The notes beneath the pieces are model-generated. The model was given only the letters and a program-made list of their open reading frames with translations. It did not search any database and was not told the origin of the DNA. From a virus: DNA of 41,571 nucleotides. The position numbers and the translations under genes are program-made. The stretch lies in the UHGV virus genome UHGV-0131723. One strand, given 5' to 3'. Shown in pieces: positions 5,013 through 38,360 of this stretch; position 1 is the stretch's first letter, and each line of letters begins with the position of its first letter.

Positions 5013-6794
5013 ATGAGTAAGTCACTTTACGCAGTACCAGCAGGTCTTAATGCAGATGCTTACAAGGCATCACATATATATCAGTATCCAGATGCTACGC
5101 AATATCTTATGTTGAACCTGACACCACGCAGTGATAAATGGTTTAACAGCCCCTTAGCAATTGATGGTGTAGTAGCTTTTGGTATTCAACGTTTTGTTAA
5201 AGATTACTTGATAGACCACTGGAATGCCACTTTCTTTGAACGTGATAAAAAAGAAGCAATTGACGAAATCTTAGAAGTCATGAATGGTGTTCTGGGTAAA
5301 GATGCTATCGGTAGAGAGCATTGGGAAGCACTTCACGACTTAGGTTATCTACCAGTTGAAGTATACGCTGTAGAAGAAGGCACAGTTGTCCCTATGCGTG
5401 TCCCAATGATTGTTTTCCAGAACACTGTTTCAGGTTTCCATTGGGTAGCAGGTTATCTGGAAGATGCTTTCTCTGCTGAGATTTGGAAGGCTTGTACCAT
5501 TGCAACTATTGCATTGCATTACAAACGCATCTGTAAGAAGTGGGCTGACCTTACTTGTGACAACGACTTGCATCTGCCCTATCAGTGCCATGACTTTGCT
5601 ATGCGTGGCATGTCAGGCTTTACTGATGACGCATTTAATGCTGTAGGTCACTTAACCAGCTTTAAAGGAACTGATAGCTTCCCTGCTGTATACACGGCTA
5701 AACGCATTTATGGGCAGTCTTACCCAATCTCTGATATTGGTAGCTCTGTACCAGCCACTGAGCACTCTGTAATGTGTGCAAACATTGCTTGGGAAGGTGG
5801 TAATGAGTTGATTGAAGAAGAAAGACGCTTTAAAGGTGAGTTACAAACCTTCCGTCGTTTCTTAACAGAAACTTACCCAACTGGTATTGCAAGTGTTGTT
5901 TCAGACACTTATAACTTCTGGAGAACTGTGTCAGAAATTTTACCAGCACTTCGCAAAGAGATTATGGGACGTGACGGTAAACTGGTAATTCGTCCTGACT
6001 CTGGAGACCCTGTACATATTGTCACAGGTTATAAAGCAATCCACTTAGAATGTGCTAAGAAGGCTTATTACGAGCACCTAAGCAAGCTGGAAGCCAGTGA
6101 CACAATGTTGAATGCTGTTCTGAACATGAAGCTTGAGAACATCAACTATGGTATTGCTGGATGGCTACTGTCAGAAGGCTACGAGATGGTTGTTGACAGA
6201 GAAGACTTTGAAGTTGCTGATACAGTGATGTTGAAAAATGCTTATATGGTTGGTTCTGCAAACGTTGTAACACGTCCTGTAGCTGAGATTGATGGAGCTA
6301 TTAAGACACTGTACAACATCTTTGGGGGAACTATTAACTCTAAAGGCTTTAAAGTACTGGATGAGCATATTGGACTTATTTATGGCGACTCTATCACGTT
6401 GGAACGTGCAAATGAAATACTGAAGCGTTTGTATGAAATGGGTTTTGCAAGCTCTAACGTAGTGTTTGGTGTAGGTTCTTACACTTACCAGTACATGACT
6501 CGTGACACCTTTGCATTTGCTGTCAAAGCAACCCTTGCAAGCATTGGTGGTAAAGAGATTATGCTTGCAAAAGACCCTAAAACAGATAGTGGTGTTAAGA
6601 AGTCTGCTTTTGGTGGTGTAGCACCTATGTGGGATGGTGAAAATCTGAAAGCTGTAGATGGCTATGGGTTCCAGAGCTTTGCAGATGCACTTGAACATCC
6701 AGCTTGTGCTTTACGTCTAGTCTTTAGCGACTCTGAGCAGTTCGGCTACACAACTCTTGGTGATATTCGAAATAATATTGACAAGCAGCTTTAA
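5013..6794 (+). CDS. nadV: Nicotinamide phosphoribosyltransferase (NadV/NAMPT-like)
   Basis: 593 aa; N-terminal YKASHIYQYP region and overall size recalled as NAMPT family. Confidence 0.8.
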   Translation: MSKSLYAVPAGLNADAYKASHIYQYPDATQYLMLNLTPRSDKWFNSPLAIDGVVAFGIQRFVKDYLIDHWNATFFERDKKEAIDEILEVMNGVLGKDAIGREHWEALHDLGYLPVEVYAVEEGTVVPMRVPMIVFQNTVSGFHWVAGYLEDAFSAEIWKACTIATIALHYKRICKKWADLTCDNDLHLPYQCHDFAMRGMSGFTDDAFNAVGHLTSFKGTDSFPAVYTAKRIYGQSYPISDIGSSVPATEHSVMCANIAWEGGNELIEEERRFKGELQTFRRFLTETYPTGIASVVSDTYNFWRTVSEILPALRKEIMGRDGKLVIRPDSGDPVHIVTGYKAIHLECAKKAYYEHLSKLEASDTMLNAVLNMKLENINYGIAGWLLSEGYEMVVDREDFEVADTVMLKNAYMVGSANVVTRPVAEIDGAIKTLYNIFGGTINSKGFKVLDEHIGLIYGDSITLERANEILKRLYEMGFASSNVVFGVGSYTYQYMTRDTFAFAVKATLASIGGKEIMLAKDPKTDSGVKKSAFGGVAPMWDGENLKAVDGYGFQSFADALEHPACALRLVFSDSEQFGYTTLGDIRNNIDKQL

Positions 6795-6808
6795 AAGTAT
6801 ATGATAAG

Positions 6809-6831
6809 AGGCTCCTACGGGAGCCTTTTTA
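6809..6831 (+). terminator. Rho-independent terminator
   Basis: AGGCTCC-TACG-GGAGCCT followed by TTTTT. Confidence 0.65.
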
Positions 6832-6847
6832 ATTTCTGGAGAAGATT

Positions 6848-7183
6848 ATGAAAATCAAAGAGATGAACATCAACATCGTCTTAGAGGAACGTTGGGAGAA
6901 CATCAAGAAACCTGAAAATGGTCATAAGTTCCTTAACAAAATTTTAGTAGCAGCTAAAGAAGAACTGACTGGTAAGATTGCAGCAGCAATCACAATAAAG
7001 GTCTGTGTAAAAGGTCTTCCAGACAATCACCAATTTGCACTTGACGAGTTTAAAGAAAGCTTCTACAATCCAAATAAACAGATGCTTGAAAGTAACTTTG
7101 CAGTATCTACAAGTATCGTCCATGACAGAAGCTTTATCCTTTACAAGAATATGAGAGGTGAGTCATGCAAGCATATTGGATAG
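6848..7183 (+). CDS. Hypothetical protein
   Basis: ORF track; GGAG RBS. Confidence 0.5.
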   Translation: MKIKEMNINIVLEERWENIKKPENGHKFLNKILVAAKEELTGKIAAAITIKVCVKGLPDNHQFALDEFKESFYNPNKQMLESNFAVSTSIVHDRSFILYKNMRGESCKHIG

Positions 7184-7341
7184 AAATTTTACTGTCACTT
7201 GGTGGCGTAGCAGTGTTTGTTTACCTTCTTTGTAAGTACTATGCAGAGCACAAAAAATGTGACTACTGTAATGGGGAAGGTTATACAAGAGCAGGTTGTT
7301 GCCCTATGTGTGGTGGTTCTGGTAAAATGTTTAACAAGTAA
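7165..7341 (+). CDS. Small membrane-anchored zinc-finger protein (58 aa, not in ORF track)
   Basis: ATG after GAGAGGTGAG RBS; hydrophobic N-terminus then two CxxCxGxG motifs (CDYCNGEG, CPMCGGSG). Confidence 0.4.
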   Translation: MQAYWIEILLSLGGVAVFVYLLCKYYAEHKKCDYCNGEGYTRAGCCPMCGGSGKMFNK

Positions 7342-7369
7342 TTTAACAGTAAACTAAGAGGAAAGTATT

Positions 7370-9736
7370 ATGCGCATGGTAAACGACCACGCAGAAGTGA
7401 TTAAGAGTTCAACTTCTTTAGAGACGTCTCAAGCACAGATTACAATGACACCTGAAATGTTCAGCCTTTTGAGTTCTGGTGTATATACCTTTAAAGAAAG
7501 GGCAGTGATTCGTGAACTGTCATGTAACGCAGTAGATGCTCAGAAAGAGGCTGGAAAAGAGAACATCCCATTCCATGTGCATTTACCTACTCGTTTTGAG
7601 CCTTACTTCGAAGTTCGTGATTTTGGAACTGGATTGACTCATGATAAAGTTATGAGTTTGTACCTAAACTATGGAGCTTCTACGAAGAATGACTCTAATG
7701 ACTACATTGGTGCAATGGGTATCGGCTCAAAGTCACCATTTGCAATTGCTCAGTCATTCACAGTATCTAGCTATGTTGATGGTGTTGTTAATAAGTACTC
7801 TGTTTATCTTGAGAATGGTATCCCTCAAGTAACTAAGCTGACAACTAACCCAACAAAAGAACCTAATGGTTTAGCTGTACGTGTGGCAGTTGCTGACCAC
7901 CGTATCTCAAAGTTCTTTGAAGAAGCTGGGAATGTGTACTCATACTTCACTGTAAAACCAGAAAGTAATATTGAGTACGACGATGTATTAGCAGATATGA
8001 ACGTCATTGCCCGTGAAGAAGGTGTTTATGATGCCATGATTCATAAGCACAGCTGGCGTTCTAGTGATAACAGGACAGAGTTTAATGTGGTGATGGGTAA
8101 CATTGCCTACCCTGTTAACATGGAAGCATTACTTGGTGATGATTTCTTCAAAGTATTGCCAGAATTTTTCCGTAGGAGCGTAGACCTTGTAAACATCTAC
8201 ATGCCTATTGGTTCAGTCGCTATTGCAGCTTCTCGTGAAGCATTGCAGATGAATGACACGACAAAAAATGTTATCATTGAGGCTACTAAAAAGATAACTG
8301 AAGCAATTACAAAGGATGTTATCAAGAAAGTTAACAGTCAACCTACACTCATGGATGCTGCACAGGCTTATGCTGAGTTACGTTTGAACTCACGAGAGAT
8401 GTTTAATGCTGTGTGTCCAAAGTTAGAGTGGGGAGGCGTTAAGCTTGATTCTCTGGAAGAAGAATTACTAAACATTCGTCGTGGAATTATCTACGCAGAA
8501 GACGGCTCAGTCATTTATGAACGTGACGGTAAAGGTAATATTAAGGTTGATAGGAACGGAAACAACATCCCTAAAGTAGATTATCTTTATGACCCAGTTG
8601 CTTATGTCAAGTTCAACTCTTTAGAGAGTAAGATTCGTGCAACAGCACTTTCCTACACTCAAGAGGCAAGTATGTTCAATATCTTTGGCGCAATGCGTAA
8701 AAGCCAAATTGAACAGTTTTTGTTTGTTATAAATGACCGTCGCAATAAAAATGGTACTGAGAAGACTGTAGGACGCAACCAAATCTTGCGTGGTGCATGT
8801 CGAGACTATGCCAGTGAGTCAAGTCTGTTTCACAGATACAATGGTATTGTCTTTGTATTCTCGACTGAAAAAGAGTTAGATGACTTAATCAATCTGCACA
8901 AACTTGATAAAAGCTTGTTAAAGATTGTGAAAATGTCTGATAAGGAACACCATTACCAGCGTAAAGAAGCTGTAAGAGGTGTTGTAAAACTCTGGAAAGC
9001 TGTTCCAGCAGAAGGTGTAGCCTCCTACAAAGAGGTGTCAGAGGACTTAGACACAATTGAAGAACCTCAGCTTTACATTAAGGCAATTGGTGACACAGTT
9101 GATGGTGAATGTTTTTGCTCATCTCCAGAAGATGTAGCTAAGTCAGTTGCTAATGTTACAGGTAAGACAGTCTATGTTTTCCGAAAAGCAAATTGGAAAA
9201 AGATACCAGAAGATTGGATTGAAGTAGATGAGAAACTCTTGAACGACAGCTTAACTGATGTTCACTGGATTAACCATAACAGATATATGACGCGTATCTA
9301 TATGAATGGTGTCCTTGACCTTACAAGCAGTTGGATTATTGCCAGAAACTTTACGTTTAATAACAGGAAGATTTCTCGCGGGTATTGTTATTCAAGGGAT
9401 ACAAACAAAACTATCTTCCTAGAAGGAAATGAAGAGGCTGTAGAGGCAATGTTCGGTAAAATCCAATACGTTGCTGCACCATTTGCATACACTTATACCA
9501 TTAGTGTATTGAAAACTTTGAAAGACTGTCTTGACAACGATACAAAGCTTTACAAGAAAATTAAGAAAGCTGGTGACCGTATGGTTATTAAGGTGGCAAA
9601 CTATCTTTCAAAAAGAAAACAAGAAAACTTCTTGCTTTCTCATTTAGATTGGAATAAAGTGTCACCCATCGAAGTGAGTAAGTTCTTAGGTTTTGATGTA
9701 AAATGTGTTCCAGAAGGGACTACAATTTACGATTAA
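7370..9736 (+). CDS. rIIA: rIIA-like protein (GHKL ATPase-like N-terminal domain)
   Basis: RAVIRELSCNAVDA, VRDFGTGL and SNDYIGAMGIGSKSPFA closely match the T4 rIIA N-terminus as recalled; 788 aa. Confidence 0.85.
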   Translation: MRMVNDHAEVIKSSTSLETSQAQITMTPEMFSLLSSGVYTFKERAVIRELSCNAVDAQKEAGKENIPFHVHLPTRFEPYFEVRDFGTGLTHDKVMSLYLNYGASTKNDSNDYIGAMGIGSKSPFAIAQSFTVSSYVDGVVNKYSVYLENGIPQVTKLTTNPTKEPNGLAVRVAVADHRISKFFEEAGNVYSYFTVKPESNIEYDDVLADMNVIAREEGVYDAMIHKHSWRSSDNRTEFNVVMGNIAYPVNMEALLGDDFFKVLPEFFRRSVDLVNIYMPIGSVAIAASREALQMNDTTKNVIIEATKKITEAITKDVIKKVNSQPTLMDAAQAYAELRLNSREMFNAVCPKLEWGGVKLDSLEEELLNIRRGIIYAEDGSVIYERDGKGNIKVDRNGNNIPKVDYLYDPVAYVKFNSLESKIRATALSYTQEASMFNIFGAMRKSQIEQFLFVINDRRNKNGTEKTVGRNQILRGACRDYASESSLFHRYNGIVFVFSTEKELDDLINLHKLDKSLLKIVKMSDKEHHYQRKEAVRGVVKLWKAVPAEGVASYKEVSEDLDTIEEPQLYIKAIGDTVDGECFCSSPEDVAKSVANVTGKTVYVFRKANWKKIPEDWIEVDEKLLNDSLTDVHWINHNRYMTRIYMNGVLDLTSSWIIARNFTFNNRKISRGYCYSRDTNKTIFLEGNEEAVEAMFGKIQYVAAPFAYTYTISVLKTLKDCLDNDTKLYKKIKKAGDRMVIKVANYLSKRKQENFLLSHLDWNKVSPIEVSKFLGFDVKCVPEGTTIYD

Positions 9737-9741
9737 AGTGT

Positions 9742-9771
9742 TTGACAAGGGGCTTCAAAGCCCCTTAAAAT
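9742..9771 (+). promoter_or_regulatory. Sigma70-like promoter with hairpin in spacer
   Basis: TTGACA-N18-TAAAAT; AAGGGGC..GCCCCTT hairpin lies in the spacer. Confidence 0.45.
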
Positions 9772-9815: not shown

Positions 9816-10925
9816 ATGACTACTAAAACTAAAGCACAGATTGACGCAGAAATTTACAAACTGGTTAAAGAAGGTAAGCTGACTAAAACAGCTATTGCAC
9901 AGAAATTTAATACTTCAACCCGTTCAGTCGGTCGTGCTGTAGAGCGTCATGAAGCAACCTTAAAAGGGAATAAGAAGGCAACTTCTACACCAGCTACGAA
10001 GACTTTGAAACAAGTTGCTAAGACCTTTAAGAAGAAAGCTGGAAAACCAGTTGAAAAGGTAGTTAAAGACGCTGTACAGAAAGCTCCAGTAAATAAACTG
10101 CACGAAGCTATGCAGAAAGATGACAAGATTGAGTACATGATTACTGGTGATTCTGTAATTATGACTTATGGTTCAGAATCTGAAATTGTTGAGTCTACTC
10201 ATCCGAACTATCAAGAGATTGTAGTTCATGTTGTGAAAGGTGAGTTCAAGAAAGCCTTTGAACTGATGAACATTCGTAAGTCTATCGAAAACTTCACTCA
10301 GGGTGCTATCACAATCAAAGGTGACAAGCTATTCTACGGTGCTGTTGAGATGCGTTCTACTCTGGTTGACCGTATTCTTCACATGATGAAAACTGGCGAT
10401 AAAGGTTTTGAACGACTTGTAATGTTCTTCGAAAAACTGATGGAAAACCCATCTAAAGATTCTGTAGAACAACTTTGGGGATTTGTATCTCACCTTGATG
10501 TTGAAATTGATGGAGAAGGCTACATCATTGGTTGGAAGAAAGTCTCTACTCGTGAAGGTAAGCTGGTTGACTCCCACACCTACAAAGTTCCTAACGATTT
10601 GGGTAACATTGTAGAGATGCCACGTTGGATGGTTGATAATAACCGTAACGTGACTTGCTCTCAAGGTCTTCATGTTGGTGCTTGGGATTATGTTCGTAGC
10701 TTCTCAGGTGATACAATCCTGAAAGTTCGTGTCCACCCACGAGATGTTGTATCTGTTCCAACTGATTACAATGATATGAAAATGCGTTCATCACGTTATG
10801 AAGTTGCAGCTATCGTTGATAGCCAGCGTAATGTTCTGAAAGCATGGGATGGCAAGACTGAAGCTCTACATGTTATCGTTGGTACTGCTGGCGAACTTAT
10901 TTCTCAGCATAAACGTGAAATCTAA
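9816..10925 (+). CDS. rIIB: rIIB-like protein
   Basis: MRSTLVDRILHMMKTGD and KVRVHPRDVVSVPTDYNDMKMRSSRYEV match T4 rIIB motifs as recalled; directly downstream of rIIA. Confidence 0.85.
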   Translation: MTTKTKAQIDAEIYKLVKEGKLTKTAIAQKFNTSTRSVGRAVERHEATLKGNKKATSTPATKTLKQVAKTFKKKAGKPVEKVVKDAVQKAPVNKLHEAMQKDDKIEYMITGDSVIMTYGSESEIVESTHPNYQEIVVHVVKGEFKKAFELMNIRKSIENFTQGAITIKGDKLFYGAVEMRSTLVDRILHMMKTGDKGFERLVMFFEKLMENPSKDSVEQLWGFVSHLDVEIDGEGYIIGWKKVSTREGKLVDSHTYKVPNDLGNIVEMPRWMVDNNRNVTCSQGLHVGAWDYVRSFSGDTILKVRVHPRDVVSVPTDYNDMKMRSSRYEVAAIVDSQRNVLKAWDGKTEALHVIVGTAGELISQHKREI

Positions 10926-10941
10926 TAAGTAATTCTCTTAA

Positions 10942-10966
10942 AAGGCTGCTTCGGCGGCCTTTTTTA
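10942..10966 (+). terminator. Rho-independent terminator
   Basis: GGCTGC-TTCG-GCGGCC followed by TTTTTT. Confidence 0.65.
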
Positions 10967-35697: not shown

Positions 35698-35772
35698 GCA
35701 TCCATAGTTTAAACGGGAAAATTACAGTCTTCCAAACTGAGGTTGAGGGTTCGATTCCCTCTGGATGCTCCA
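35698..35772 (+). tRNA. tRNA-Gly (UCC)
   Basis: Acceptor GCATCCA/TGGATGC; loop CTTCCAA; T-arm GAGGGTTCGATTCCCTC. Confidence 0.7.
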
Positions 35773-35778
35773 AACAAT

Positions 35779-35855
35779 GCTGCTTTCGTATAATTGGCTA
35801 TTACACATCCCTTGTAAGGATGGAAATGCAGGTTCGAGTCCTGTGAGCAGCACCA
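35779..35855 (+). tRNA. tRNA-Thr (UGU)
   Basis: Anticodon stem CATCC/GGATG, loop CTTGTAA. Confidence 0.7.
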
Positions 35856-35950
35856 ATTCAGAGGCCAAGTGAAAGACCGCTGGTGTCAACTGAAGACCGT
35901 AACAAATTCCACGGAGTTGAGTTAGCGGCACAACTTCAGACCTCTTTCAC

Positions 35951-36025
35951 ACTCGCTTAGTTTATATGGTAAAACATCACCCTTACAAGATGAAGAAAAA
36001 GGTTCAAGTCCTTTAGTGAGTACCA
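35951..36025 (+). tRNA. tRNA-Val (UAC)
   Basis: Loop CTTACAA; T-arm AAAGGTTCAAGTCCTTT; CCA encoded. Confidence 0.6.
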
Positions 36026-36026
36026 T

Positions 36027-36104
36027 GTTCCAGTATCCCAATTGGCAGAGGATGCAAGCTCAAACCTTGTACTAGTGACGGTTCGAATCCGTCTTGGAAC
36101 ACCA
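36027..36104 (+). tRNA. tRNA with CAA anticodon (Leu by code), short variable arm
   Basis: Anticodon stem GCAAG/CTTGT, loop CTCAAAC; discriminator A; 78 nt. Confidence 0.5.
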
Positions 36105-36109
36105 ATTTT

Positions 36110-36185
36110 GCAGGATTAGTTCAAATGGATAGAGCAACAGTCTACGAAGCTGTTAATAGGGGTTCGAATCCCTTATCCTGCGCCA
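36110..36185 (+). tRNA. tRNA-Arg (ACG)
   Basis: D-arm GTTC/GAGC; loop CTACGAA; CCA encoded. Confidence 0.7.
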
Positions 36186-36203
36186 GATAAGCAAGAGGAA
36201 TTT

Positions 36204-36446
36204 ATGCAAACATTAATCGTCGTTGAACATGAAAATCCCAATAGTATTGAGTTTGTAAGGGTTCCCACTATAGATACCCACATTTTCTTGAAAGTCGGAT
36301 GGGAATGCGACCCAATAAAAGTAGAAAGATTTATTGGTCATTGCTTTGGTGGAAGACAACTTAAAAGCATCAATTTTGAGACAATGTTACCAGAAAGCTC
36401 AGAAACAAATAATAATGCTTACCTCCTTACGAGGGTTAGACAATGA
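36204..36446 (+). CDS. Hypothetical protein embedded in tRNA cluster
   Basis: ORF track; AGAGGAA RBS. Confidence 0.5.
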   Translation: MQTLIVVEHENPNSIEFVRVPTIDTHIFLKVGWECDPIKVERFIGHCFGGRQLKSINFETMLPESSETNNNAYLLTRVRQ

Positions 36447-37000
36447 GATACTTAAAATATGTTTCATGGATTTTCTTAGCTTTGTTAGAACCATTTGCAG
36501 CAACCCTAGCAGTCATCTTAGCACCTTTCGTAGTTCCATCCTACAGTGAGAAGAAAGGACACTTACCTTTCGGGTTCAGATGGATGGAGACCTATGACAA
36601 CCCAATTGATGGTGATGAAGGTCACGTTAAAAGATGGGCTAATATTAGATGGATTGGTAAGCTGGGTGTCTACATGCAGAGAGTTGGATGGCTCTGGAGA
36701 AACAAAGCTTATAACTTCTCTTACCATGTATTAGGAAGAGATGTAAAAGATGTTACTAAGTGGAAAGGTAATATCAACGTAAGTTCTGACCCCGAAGATA
36801 ATCAGACAGGTTATCTCCTAATGTGGAACAGTAATGCTTGGGGATTATTCGCTTTTATCCCATCAATTAAAATCTTTGGTAAACAATTTTACTGGAGAAT
36901 TTATATTGGATGGAAACTAAAAAGTGTTGTCCCAGAAGAAAGAGCATTCTCAAGGGAAAGAGTTATGTTGGCATTCTTTATTCATCCACTGAGAAAGTAA
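36443..37000 (+). CDS. Hypothetical membrane protein embedded in tRNA cluster
   Basis: ORF track; N-terminal hydrophobic segment; ATGA overlap with upstream ORF. Confidence 0.5.
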   Translation: MRYLKYVSWIFLALLEPFAATLAVILAPFVVPSYSEKKGHLPFGFRWMETYDNPIDGDEGHVKRWANIRWIGKLGVYMQRVGWLWRNKAYNFSYHVLGRDVKDVTKWKGNINVSSDPEDNQTGYLLMWNSNAWGLFAFIPSIKIFGKQFYWRIYIGWKLKSVVPEERAFSRERVMLAFFIHPLRK

Positions 37001-37008
37001 AGATTTAA

Positions 37009-37084
37009 AGGGGATTAGTTTACAAGGTTAAAACCTCGGTCTTTGAAATCGAAGAAGTTGGTTCAATTCCAACATCCCCCGCCA
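37009..37084 (+). tRNA. tRNA-Gln (UUG)
   Basis: Loop CTTTGAA; T-arm GTTGGTTCAATTCCAAC; 1:72 A-C mismatch. Confidence 0.65.
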
Positions 37085-37086
37085 AT

Positions 37087-37165
37087 GCTCCATTACTCCA
37101 ATTGGCAGAGAGGCCAGACTTAAAATCTGTGTTATGTATCGGTTCGAATCCGATATGGAGTACCA
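37087..37165 (+). tRNA. tRNA with UAA anticodon (Leu by code), short variable arm
   Basis: Loop CTTAAAA; T-arm ATCGGTTCGAATCCGAT; discriminator A; 79 nt. Confidence 0.5.
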
Positions 37166-37170
37166 AATTT

Positions 37171-37246
37171 AGCGGTATAGCATAACTGGCAATGCAGCAG
37201 CCTCTGAAGCTGTCCTATTAAGGTTCAAATCCTTATGCCGCTGCCA
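37171..37246 (+). tRNA. tRNA-Gln (CUG)
   Basis: D-arm GCAT/ATGC; anticodon stem GCAGC/GCTGT, loop CTCTGAA. Confidence 0.65.
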
Positions 37247-37277
37247 CTTCTAAGGATTCTTGCGAGAGTCCTTAAAT

Positions 37278-37353
37278 GTGGCCTTATCATAAATGGTAAT
37301 GACCCATGCTGTGAACATGGTCTATACGGGTTCAAATCCCGTAGGTCACCCCA
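37278..37353 (+). tRNA. tRNA-His (GUG)
   Basis: Anticodon stem CCATG/CATGG, loop CTGTGAA; discriminator C. Confidence 0.7.
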
Positions 37354-37359
37354 ATTTAT

Positions 37360-37435
37360 AGTCCAAGTAGCTTATATGGTTAAAGCGCGTGTCTGAAAAA
37401 CATGAGAAGAGGGTTCAAATCCCACTGGACTACCA
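37360..37435 (+). tRNA. tRNA-Phe (GAA)
   Basis: D-arm GCTT/AAGC; anticodon stem CGTGT/ACATG, loop CTGAAAA; acceptor register uncertain by 1 nt. Confidence 0.55.
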
Positions 37436-37451
37436 ATTTCAAAGGTGCTTA

Positions 37452-38186
37452 ATGAAAGAGATGACAGAACAAGGTAAGGAGATTTTTAATCTCTTAAAAA
37501 CCGGTAAAGGGTTCTCTAACCCACTTATTACTGGTGCAGCAGTTCTCGGTGGAACCGTAGCTGCTTCTACATCACTTGTAAGCTCTATTAGTTCTGTAAC
37601 AGACCCTACAATGAAGGAGAAACTTGTTGCTGCTGGACTTACAACAGTCCTTCTAAACAGCTTTACAACAAGCCTGACAAGCACTACAGCAACTACTAAG
37701 ACCCTAACAGAATATGGTCAAAAGTCTATTGATGAGTTTTCATCACGTATGCAGGTAGCAAAGGGATACTCCAATGTTATGGGTGCAGCAGGAGAACAAG
37801 TTGGTTGTACACCATTCAGTGGTATTATGGGTGTTGCTACAGAATATGGTCAAAAAGCTATTGACATGATGAACAGTACACTAGATAGTGTTAATGGTGT
37901 GTTAAGTGACTTACAAGATGCTATTGACAAAGGTCTTGATACTATTTCTGATTTAGCTAACCAAGCTGTTAGTAAGATTAATGAAGGTATTTCGAAGATT
38001 ACAGCTTATGCAGATGAAGTTGTGCAGATGATTGAAGAAGAAGCTGCTCTTATTGCAGAGTACCTTAAAACGAATATCAATGGGTTCTTAGCAGGTATCT
38101 TACCAGACTGGTTTGATGATGCTTGTAAAACTGGTGTGATTGACACTATTGCAACACCAGAAATGAAGAACGCATTACAGAAATAA
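37452..38186 (+). CDS. Hypothetical protein with internal repeat
   Basis: ORF-track GTG start at 37389 lies inside tRNA-Phe; first ATG after AAAGGTG RBS is 37452; repeat TEYGQKSIDEF.../TEYGQKAIDMM... Confidence 0.5.
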   Translation: MKEMTEQGKEIFNLLKTGKGFSNPLITGAAVLGGTVAASTSLVSSISSVTDPTMKEKLVAAGLTTVLLNSFTTSLTSTTATTKTLTEYGQKSIDEFSSRMQVAKGYSNVMGAAGEQVGCTPFSGIMGVATEYGQKAIDMMNSTLDSVNGVLSDLQDAIDKGLDTISDLANQAVSKINEGISKITAYADEVVQMIEEEAALIAEYLKTNINGFLAGILPDWFDDACKTGVIDTIATPEMKNALQK

Positions 38187-38187
38187 T

Positions 38188-38280
38188 GGAAGATTAACCC
38201 TAAAAGGTAAGGGAGCAGTTTGCTAAACTGCCAGTAGCTGAGAAATCGGTGTACCAGTTCAAGTCTGGTATCTTCCTCCA
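38188..38280 (+). tRNA. tRNA-Ser (GCU), long variable arm
   Basis: 93 nt; anticodon stem GCAGT/ACTGC, loop TTGCTAA; T-arm ACCAGTTCAAGTCTGGT. Confidence 0.7.
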
Positions 38281-38284
38281 ATTT

Positions 38285-38360
38285 GAATCCGTGACAGAAA
38301 TGGCTATGTGCCTGTCTGCAAAACAGGTTTATAAGGGTTCGAGTCCCTTCGGATTCTCCA
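38285..38360 (+). tRNA. tRNA-Cys (GCA)
   Basis: Anticodon stem CCTGT/ACAGG, loop CTGCAAA; discriminator U; CCA encoded. Confidence 0.7.

Follow-up and report, generated by a model that had tools for sequence, protein, structure and literature searches.

A conserved 58-residue protein encoded beside rIIA in Felix O1-like phages, with a predicted membrane helix and two CxxCxGxG motifs

The nadV–rIIA interval and its small gene

By its sequence, the window (the whole stretch of DNA analysed here, 41,571 bases) is a Felixounavirus. A 1.5-kb segment around the open reading frame described below shares 99.7–99.8% identity with Escherichia phages ECML-1 and KhF2; it has matches in 254 phage records, nearly all from Felixounavirus. 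The gene order in this part of the window is ribose-phosphate pyrophosphokinase, nadV, a 111-aa ORF, a 58-aa ORF, rIIA and rIIB (Table 1).

Table 1. Coordinates of genes and sequence features around the 58-aa ORF
Feature	Position	Strand	Remarks
nadV	5013–6794		
Sigma-70-like promoter, TTGACA-16-TATGAT	6778–6805	+	11/12 matches; overlaps the nadV end
Terminator-like hairpin and T-run after nadV	6806–6829	+	-16.6 kcal/mol, z = -3.9
111-aa ORF, phrog_4262	6848–7183	+	last 19 nt overlap the 58-aa ORF
Shine-Dalgarno site GAGAGGTGAG	7153–7162	+	within the 3' end of the 111-aa ORF
58-aa CDS	7165–7341	+	orthologue of Felix01p243 / bas63_0083 / phrog_3931
Predicted transmembrane helix WIEILLSLGGVAVFVYLLCKYY	7174–7242	+	codons 4–26; single, hydrophobic
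First CxxCxGxG motif, CDYCNGEG	7258–7281	+	C32 D Y C35 N G37 E G39
Second CxxCxGxG motif, CPMCGGSG	7300–7323	+	C46 P M C49 G G51 S G53
rIIA, phrog_612	7370–9736	+	E = 5e-189; constant downstream neighbour in Ounavirinae
rIIB	9816–10925	+	followed by a terminator-like hairpin
Terminator-like hairpin	10940–10963	+	after rIIB

The 58-aa ORF begins with ATG, its coordinates include the stop codon, and its product is MQAYWIEILLSLGGVAVFVYLLCKYYAEHKKCDYCNGEGYTRAGCCPMCGGSGKMFNK. It is missing from the default ORF list of the window because it is shorter than 60 aa. Its first 19 nt (7165–7183) are shared with the end of the 111-aa ORF, an overlap that an earlier note on this DNA had reported and that is the same in Mooglevirus and Suspvirus. 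The purine-rich ribosome-binding site proposed in that note proved to be a strong Shine-Dalgarno site with suitable spacing: GAGGTGA within GAGAGGTGAG is a 7-nt match to the consensus, the distance from the GG core to the ATG is 6 nt, and the site is kept across 23 related loci. The second CxxCxGxG motif starts 6 residues past the first and the protein ends 5 residues past the second. In a six-frame translation of the entire window this motif occurs twice, both times in the 58-aa ORF; 100 shuffled versions of the window gave a mean of 0.11 matches and a maximum of 1.

The hairpin that follows nadV directly abuts the -10 hexamer of the sigma-70-like promoter, an arrangement that is kept in Mooglevirus (Moogle) and Suspvirus (EcSzw-2). 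As the next terminator-like site on the + strand comes only after rIIB, the 111-aa ORF, the 58-aa ORF, rIIA and rIIB are probably co-transcribed from this promoter. Weaker promoter-like sites are also present before rIIA (7343–7371) and rIIB (9742–9771), and from these the two genes could be independently expressed. The region 6600–7500 contains no Rfam family, and a search of the Felixounavirus transcriptome literature returned nothing relevant.

The gene lies between nadV and rIIA in Felixounavirus (the window, KhF2 and Bas63), Mooglevirus, Suspvirus and Pectobacterium phage Wc4. Identity to the window protein is approximately 50% in Mooglevirus and in Suspvirus, 37% in Wc4 and 30% in Kolesnikvirus phiEa21-4. 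Wc4 has no 111-aa ORF and its 58-aa homologue still adjoins rIIA. In phiEa21-4 the homologue, gp117, is the last gene of the record. According to the authors of the wV8 genome, records of the Felix O1 type begin just ahead of rIIA, and on this basis gp117 would adjoin rIIA as well. The neighbouring phiEa21-4 protein, gp116, was compared with the 111-aa ORF and, at E = 0.027, no tie was made; thus, a conserved gene pair is supported for Felixounavirus, Mooglevirus and Suspvirus only. The T4 gene rIIA.1, considered as a positional counterpart of the 58-aa gene, is unrelated in sequence and has neither the Cys motifs nor a hydrophobic helix. In Krischvirus (RB49, Phi1 and JSE; approximately 60 records) and in related metagenomic contigs, a homologue of 52–58 aa lies away from rIIA and shares 11 nt with the 3' end of the glutaredoxin gene nrdH.

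Conservation and family of the 58-aa protein

The 58-aa ORF is a genuine gene under purifying selection. The 24 Felixounavirus copies compared comprise 20 distinct alleles, in which variable sites are distributed 8/5/29 over codon positions 1/2/3. Using the Nei-Gojobori method, pN/pS is 0.094 in the frame of the ORF versus 1.83 and 1.00 in the two alternative frames of the + strand, and it is 0.065 in the zinc-finger half. In these alleles, five of the six Cys codons switch between TGT and TGC with the residue unchanged.

Conservation extends well beyond the genus. As one check, the earlier note had proposed to see whether related phages keep the ORF and its two Cys motifs, and they do: a tblastn search with the 58-aa protein found it full-length and in one piece in 262 of 263 phage records, and the eight Cys and Gly positions of the two motifs are invariant. 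Here, the comparison involved 12 family members that are 30–55% identical, in which the only invariant columns are M1, C32, C35, G37, G39, C46, C49, G51 and G53. C45, the extra Cys next to the second motif, and C23 vary among members, and the helix is kept in hydrophobicity alone and not in residue identity. Frameshifted versions are found in Salmonella phage NJ12, phiWec177, phiWec174 and some singleton metagenomic sequences; these may be either sequencing errors or true losses of a dispensable gene.

The protein matches the phrog_3931 HMM with E = 4.9e-33 and 114 bits, with residues 1–58 aligned to positions 1–59 of the 59-position profile. Family members are known as Felix01p243 (Felix O1, NP_945023.1), bas63_0083 (Bas63), agp080 (SUSP1), gp117 (phiEa21-4) and RB49p046; agp080 is the equivalent of Felix01p243 and is assigned to phrog_3931. 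The similarity to RB49p046 was already recorded by the depositors of phiEa21-4. The Bas63 protein is identical to the window copy at 57 of 58 positions, the one change being G14S, and phrog_3931 relatives have the same architecture, that is, a transmembrane helix and two CxxCxGxG motifs, with nothing material differing. GenBank labels in relatives are "putative membrane protein" (KhF2, ANZ51959.1), "membrane protein" and "hypothetical protein", with "heat shock protein" or "chaperone protein" used now and then. The description of the ORF as unannotated is therefore right for the 60-aa ORF track only: it is annotated in GenBank relatives and forms phrog_3931, so that the gene is one already catalogued as hypothetical in a well-sampled phage genus.

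Very large protein collections yield only a small family with two branches, Ounavirinae and Krischvirus. With HMMER, 814 matches at E <= 1e-3 were obtained among 1.8 billion representatives. These were not taken as the family: aside from small proteins of the Ounavirinae and Krischvirus types, the highest-ranking ones are mostly proteins with multiple CxxCxGxG repeats, and the matches therefore reflect the motif and not the family. Three distant IMG/VR matches (L024–L026) were likewise rejected as members, as they share only the CPMCGGSGK knuckle and are unrelated soluble or larger proteins.

Predicted membrane helix and putative zinc module

The predicted layout of the protein is a short acidic N-terminus, one transmembrane helix (approximately residues 4–26) and a C-terminal module of 27 residues. 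The hydrophobic N-terminal helix claimed in the earlier note was borne out in two ways. First, the best 19-residue Kyte-Doolittle window spans residues 5–23 with a mean of 2.13. Second, an AlphaFold2 model, built from a 7-sequence alignment and with a mean pLDDT of 77, has a helix at residues 3–28 followed by short beta hairpins. In all 12 family members, hydropathy reaches 2.1–3.2 over 17–19 residues. Together, the hydropathy and the model suggest that the protein inserts into the membrane.

The distribution of charge points to the orientation. The 17-residue hydrophobic core is not preceded by a Lys or Arg in any of the 12 members, 11 carry an acidic residue at the N-terminus or close to it, nine have Lys or Arg just past the helix and most have Lys-rich C-terminal tails. 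In the window protein, the helix is followed by K24, K30 and K31. Under the positive-inside rule an N-out/C-in topology is favoured as the most likely one, which would place the putative zinc site in the reducing cytoplasm. Wc4 is the only member with a Lys (K4) inside the N-terminal hydrophobic core, and in both Moogle and Wc4 the linker after the helix is acidic on balance, making the charge-based assignment weak for these two.

The C-terminal module resembles known zinc-binding domains. In Foldseek searches, the best PDB fold matches of the model are the anti-TRAP structures 3ld0, 2bx9 and 3lcz, with an rmsd of 1.1–1.2 A over 29 residues and a probability of 1.0, yet E-values of 0.09–0.2; DnaJ zinc-finger domains and BSD2 rank below anti-TRAP. 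The family profile matches the cysteine-rich domain of Escherichia coli DnaJ (1exk) with E = 7.3e-11 and, gap-free, Bacillus licheniformis anti-TRAP (3lcz) with E = 8e-6. Matches to Pfam and NCBIfam are all sub-threshold (DnaJ, zf-C2H2_10, DUF5351, RtpA and TIGR02642). For DnaJ_CXXCXGXG (PF00684) the score is 15.3 bits against a gathering threshold of 32.7 (E = 0.024), and for NCBIfam RtpA (NF058604) it is 11–14 bits against a cut-off of 65. As both thresholds are missed, the protein is described here as working like these modules and as a member of neither.

DnaJ has the CxxCxGxG motif in common with the phage protein, and differs in number and context. The DnaJ cysteine-rich domain (PF00684) contains four motifs, in which non-adjacent pairs form two zinc centres, and sits between the J-domain and the substrate-binding domains. 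In contrast, the phage protein has two motifs (residues 32–39 and 46–53), no J-domain and a transmembrane helix. With only two motifs, one zinc site of the anti-TRAP type would be formed and not the two of DnaJ, and the sequence and the model suggest that C32, C35, C46 and C49 make up this single Cys4 site. The two CxxCxGxG motifs that the earlier note likened to the DnaJ zinc-binding repeat thus stand, as the sole matches in the window, and they would not make up a two-zinc DnaJ domain.

In kind, the module comes nearest to anti-TRAP (RtpA) of Bacillus and to one half of the DnaJ cysteine-rich domain. Anti-TRAP is likewise small, with approximately 53 residues, and has one Cys4 zinc site made of two DnaJ-type knuckles that are 6 residues apart, the spacing seen in 10 of the 12 family members. 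Anti-TRAP works purely through binding another protein. Unlike the phage protein, whose sole helix is the hydrophobic one at the N-terminus, it is a soluble protein that assembles into trimers and dodecamers through a helix at its C-terminus; its context of tryptophan regulation is also absent for the phage protein.

A membrane anchor followed by such a finger has precedents in plants. FIP (At5g02160), which binds FtsH5, combines a membrane helix with a zinc finger at its C-terminus that contains two CXXCXGXG motifs (PMC5915565). In FIP, as well as in LQY1 and CYO1, a membrane anchor precedes a C4 finger and there is no J-domain, as in the phage protein. These are, however, larger eukaryotic thylakoid proteins with transit peptides, and the likeness, being one of architecture, is a pointer to a possible target rather than a sign of common descent. 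A literature search for characterised membrane-anchored CxxCxGxG proteins of phages turned up DnaJ-like domains only in soluble or fused form, namely those of HMO-2011-type DNA polymerases and of Loki gp45.

Fitness screens and candidate functions

Two published screens include the gene. In PhageMaP, barcoded insertion libraries were made in Bas63 (bioRxiv 10.1101/2024.10.10.617714; genome MZ501086), and in the part of that source available to us gene 83 (bas63_0083) is scored on S17, a second laboratory strain, BW25113 and hosts carrying TerY-P, probably AVAST type 4, and qatABCD. Insertions in gene 83 score +0.25/+0.11/+0.48 on S17 and +0.13/-0.81/+0.78 on BW25113, where structural genes score -2 to -4. 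Gene 83 is also positive on the two defence hosts with TerY-P and probably AVAST type 4 (10.1101/2024.10.10.617714). Within the portion of the preprint text at hand, it is not named as a hit under "g83". In the SUSP1 CRISPRi-ART screen, agp080 is "Not Fit" (score 1.05, KS p = 0.11, 7 guides) and rIIA (agp081) is "Semi-Fit" (PMC11879866). The 58-aa gene is, in short, dispensable in the laboratory. PADLOC defence models gave no match for the 58-aa ORF, two of its homologues or the 111-aa neighbour.

The explanation that we favour, with moderate confidence, is that the protein is an accessory protein of the inner membrane, in which a single-zinc knuckle on the cytoplasmic side serves as a tethered protein-binding module and has a conditional function. 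The gene would be transcribed with the 111-aa ORF, rIIA and rIIB from the sigma-70-like promoter and its ORF translated as an accessory protein of Felix O1-like phages (Ounavirinae). Here, the two CxxCxGxG knuckles would hold a single zinc ion via C32, C35, C46 and C49, and the resulting module, tethered on the cytoplasmic side of the inner membrane, would bind a partner protein as an adaptor or an inhibitor. A role in protein binding is suggested by analogy, as anti-TRAP binds TRAP and FIP binds FtsH; we infer the protein-binding activity and likewise the timing of expression. The function would be conditional, the gene being dispensable on laboratory E. coli.

A bolder version of this proposal, which we regard as unlikely, is that the membrane-tethered zinc knuckle represents a new type of phage effector, one that binds a host factor on the inner membrane's cytoplasmic side and so inhibits it. 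By analogy with FIP, the candidate target may be FtsH; alternatively, it may be a membrane-associated anti-phage system outside those in the published screens. An effector would explain why purifying selection is strong in two unrelated phage lineages despite dispensability in the laboratory.

We also doubt that the protein is a subunit or membrane anchor dedicated to the RIIA/RIIB module and needed against membrane-acting defences such as RexAB and QatABCD. Several observations speak for such a role. Annotation assigns RIIA and RIIB to membrane integrity, and the two are not known to have a transmembrane segment of their own. The small gene probably belongs to one transcription unit with rIIA and rIIB, and it is directly upstream of rIIA in the Ounavirinae lineages examined, even where identity is only 30–37% or the 111-aa ORF is absent. 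However, in the Krischvirus genomes the homologue adjoins nrdH and not rIIA, T4 rII works with the unrelated upstream gene rIIA.1, and agp080 of SUSP1 is "Not Fit". The PhageMaP data for the QatABCD host bear directly on the question. On this host, insertions are positive in gene 83 (+0.77/+0.66/+0.81) and negative in rIIA (-1.26/-1.30/-1.61) and rIIB (-1.05/-2.46/-2.45), the two genes that the authors of the screen confirmed as counters of QatABCD (10.1101/2024.10.10.617714). Disrupting the small gene thus has a different effect from disrupting rII, and the 58-aa gene is not required for rII function, at least against QatABCD.

Rather improbable, in our estimate, is a thiol-disulfide redox or chaperone-like membrane factor that resembles DnaJ, LQY1 and CYO1 and partners the phage glutaredoxin. 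Such a partnership would fit the 11-nt overlap with the 3' end of nrdH in approximately 60 Krischvirus records and in metagenomic contigs, but adjacency is weak evidence in the tightly packed genomes of T4-like phages, and in Ounavirinae the glutaredoxin gene is approximately 10 kb away (bas63_0065 versus bas63_0083). Similarly, a CC doublet is common at the second motif and C23 is placed at the end of the helix, yet these extra cysteines are not invariant. Some depositors chose the labels "heat shock protein" or "chaperone protein", and, according to the abstract of PMC8262869, DnaJ can act as an oxidoreductase. The phage module is, however, a 27-residue single-zinc knuckle that has neither a J-domain nor a substrate-binding domain.

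We give a similarly low rating to the opposite, N-in/C-out topology. Here, the Cys-rich module would be periplasmic, either disulfide-bonded or zinc-bound, and would act in superinfection exclusion or in the timing of lysis, like T4 Imm, Sp and RI. Lys4 and the acidic post-helix linker of Wc4 are in keeping with this orientation, and many bacterial CxxCxGxG repeat proteins carry signal peptides. Among the matches to the family profile, such repeat proteins with clear signal peptides are P0049, P0084 and P0154. Against this, in 11 of the 12 members no basic residue lies ahead of the helix or in its N-terminal part, and most members carry Lys or Arg after it together with a Lys-rich tail. In the oxidising periplasm, a Cys4 zinc site would not be expected to last. 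A lysis role would agree with the historical "lysis inhibitor" label of the neighbouring rII genes, but the Bas63 spanins (genes 89–90) are five genes downstream of rIIB, the candidate endolysin (18*, 123) and holin* (29, 153) genes are elsewhere, and gene 83 is located between nadV and rIIA.

Finally, a chance ORF or overlap artefact in the nadV–rIIA spacer from which no protein is made would account for the length of only 58 aa, the lack of a family annotation beyond "hypothetical", the dispensability in two screens and the occasional frameshifted records, but it is scarcely credible and effectively refuted by the conservation data: the low pN/pS is confined to this one frame, Cys codons vary synonymously while the residues are fixed, the motif is invariant at 30–55% identity across two phage families, two CxxCxGxG matches stand against 0.11 expected in the window, and the ribosome-binding site is kept.

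The 58-aa gene thus joins the large pool of conserved small phage proteins. Both its type of zinc finger and its membrane-anchored architecture have known counterparts, and for public annotation the gain is a more informative product name only, that is, small membrane protein with a DnaJ/anti-TRAP-type zinc finger. Its architecture, its fixed place by rIIA and the strong purifying selection on it give a concrete and testable picture. Salmonella diagnostics make use of Felix O1-like phages, which have also been proposed for biocontrol. If a partner of the protein is found, it could show in what way Felix O1-like and RB49-like phages manipulate a process at the host membrane.

Proteins and gene arrangements that recall the small ORF

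Five bacterial or metagenomic proteins (P0048, P0049, P0084, P0090 and P0154) contain the CxxCxGxG motif in 4–10 repeats. Each is 90–210 residues long and begins with a signal peptide or a membrane anchor, and together they apparently represent an exported class of DnaJ-type repeat proteins. The phage 58-aa family has only the motif in common with these proteins and is otherwise unrelated to them.

The Krischvirus arrangement, in which a small membrane ORF accompanies nrdH, is echoed in Felixounavirus. In Bas63 (MZ501086, 6141–6582), bas63_0066, a small hydrophobic ORF of 68 aa, comes after the putative glutaredoxin gene bas63_0065 and overlaps it. However, bas63_0066 has no Cys motifs and, as a protein, is unrelated to the ORF beside Krischvirus nrdH.

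Variation in the ORF and in the spacer after nadV

Several variants of the 58-aa ORF are frameshifted. In the variant P0005 the shift is exactly at the A6 run (see table), and in the NJ12 variant it is immediately past this run, at codon 32. The remaining variants shift at other places. Following the shift, all of them either enter the +1-frame ORF at 7217–7357 or meet early stops. These variants could be sequencing errors or, alternatively, natural knock-outs of a dispensable gene.

Upstream, ULIM3, FSL SP-107, Bas63, Moogle and two further relatives (loci L006 and L019) have an extra stretch of ~350 bp between nadV and the 111-aa ORF, with one more small hypothetical ORF in it (gene 81 in Bas63; gene 4 in Moogle; phrog_2375 in SUSP1). 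As this stretch is absent from the window, the spacer is a variable insertion site. Elsewhere in the window, 25 tRNA genes are clustered on the + strand at 33206–38360 with small ORFs in between, which is typical for Felix O1-like phages.

Predicted transcription signals at the end of nadV and before the rII genes

Sequence elements in the window
Element	Position	Details
sigma-70-like promoter and strong terminator-like hairpin	6778-6829	near-consensus TTGACA-16-TATGAT; promoter overlaps nadV stop codon and adjoins hairpin
A6 run (AAAAAA)	7252-7257	codons 30-31 of the 58-aa ORF
promoter-like site just 5' of rIIA	7343-7371	10/12 matches
promoter-like site just 5' of rIIB	9742-9771	11/12 matches

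Since transcription from the promoter at the end of nadV would initiate within the hairpin's 5' arm, the transcript would escape termination. The same promoter/hairpin layout is kept in Mooglevirus and Suspvirus. Further downstream, the two promoter-like sites would allow the rII genes to be expressed independently of the 58-aa ORF, which fits with the lack of polar effects of barcode insertions in Bas63 gene 83, its orthologue.
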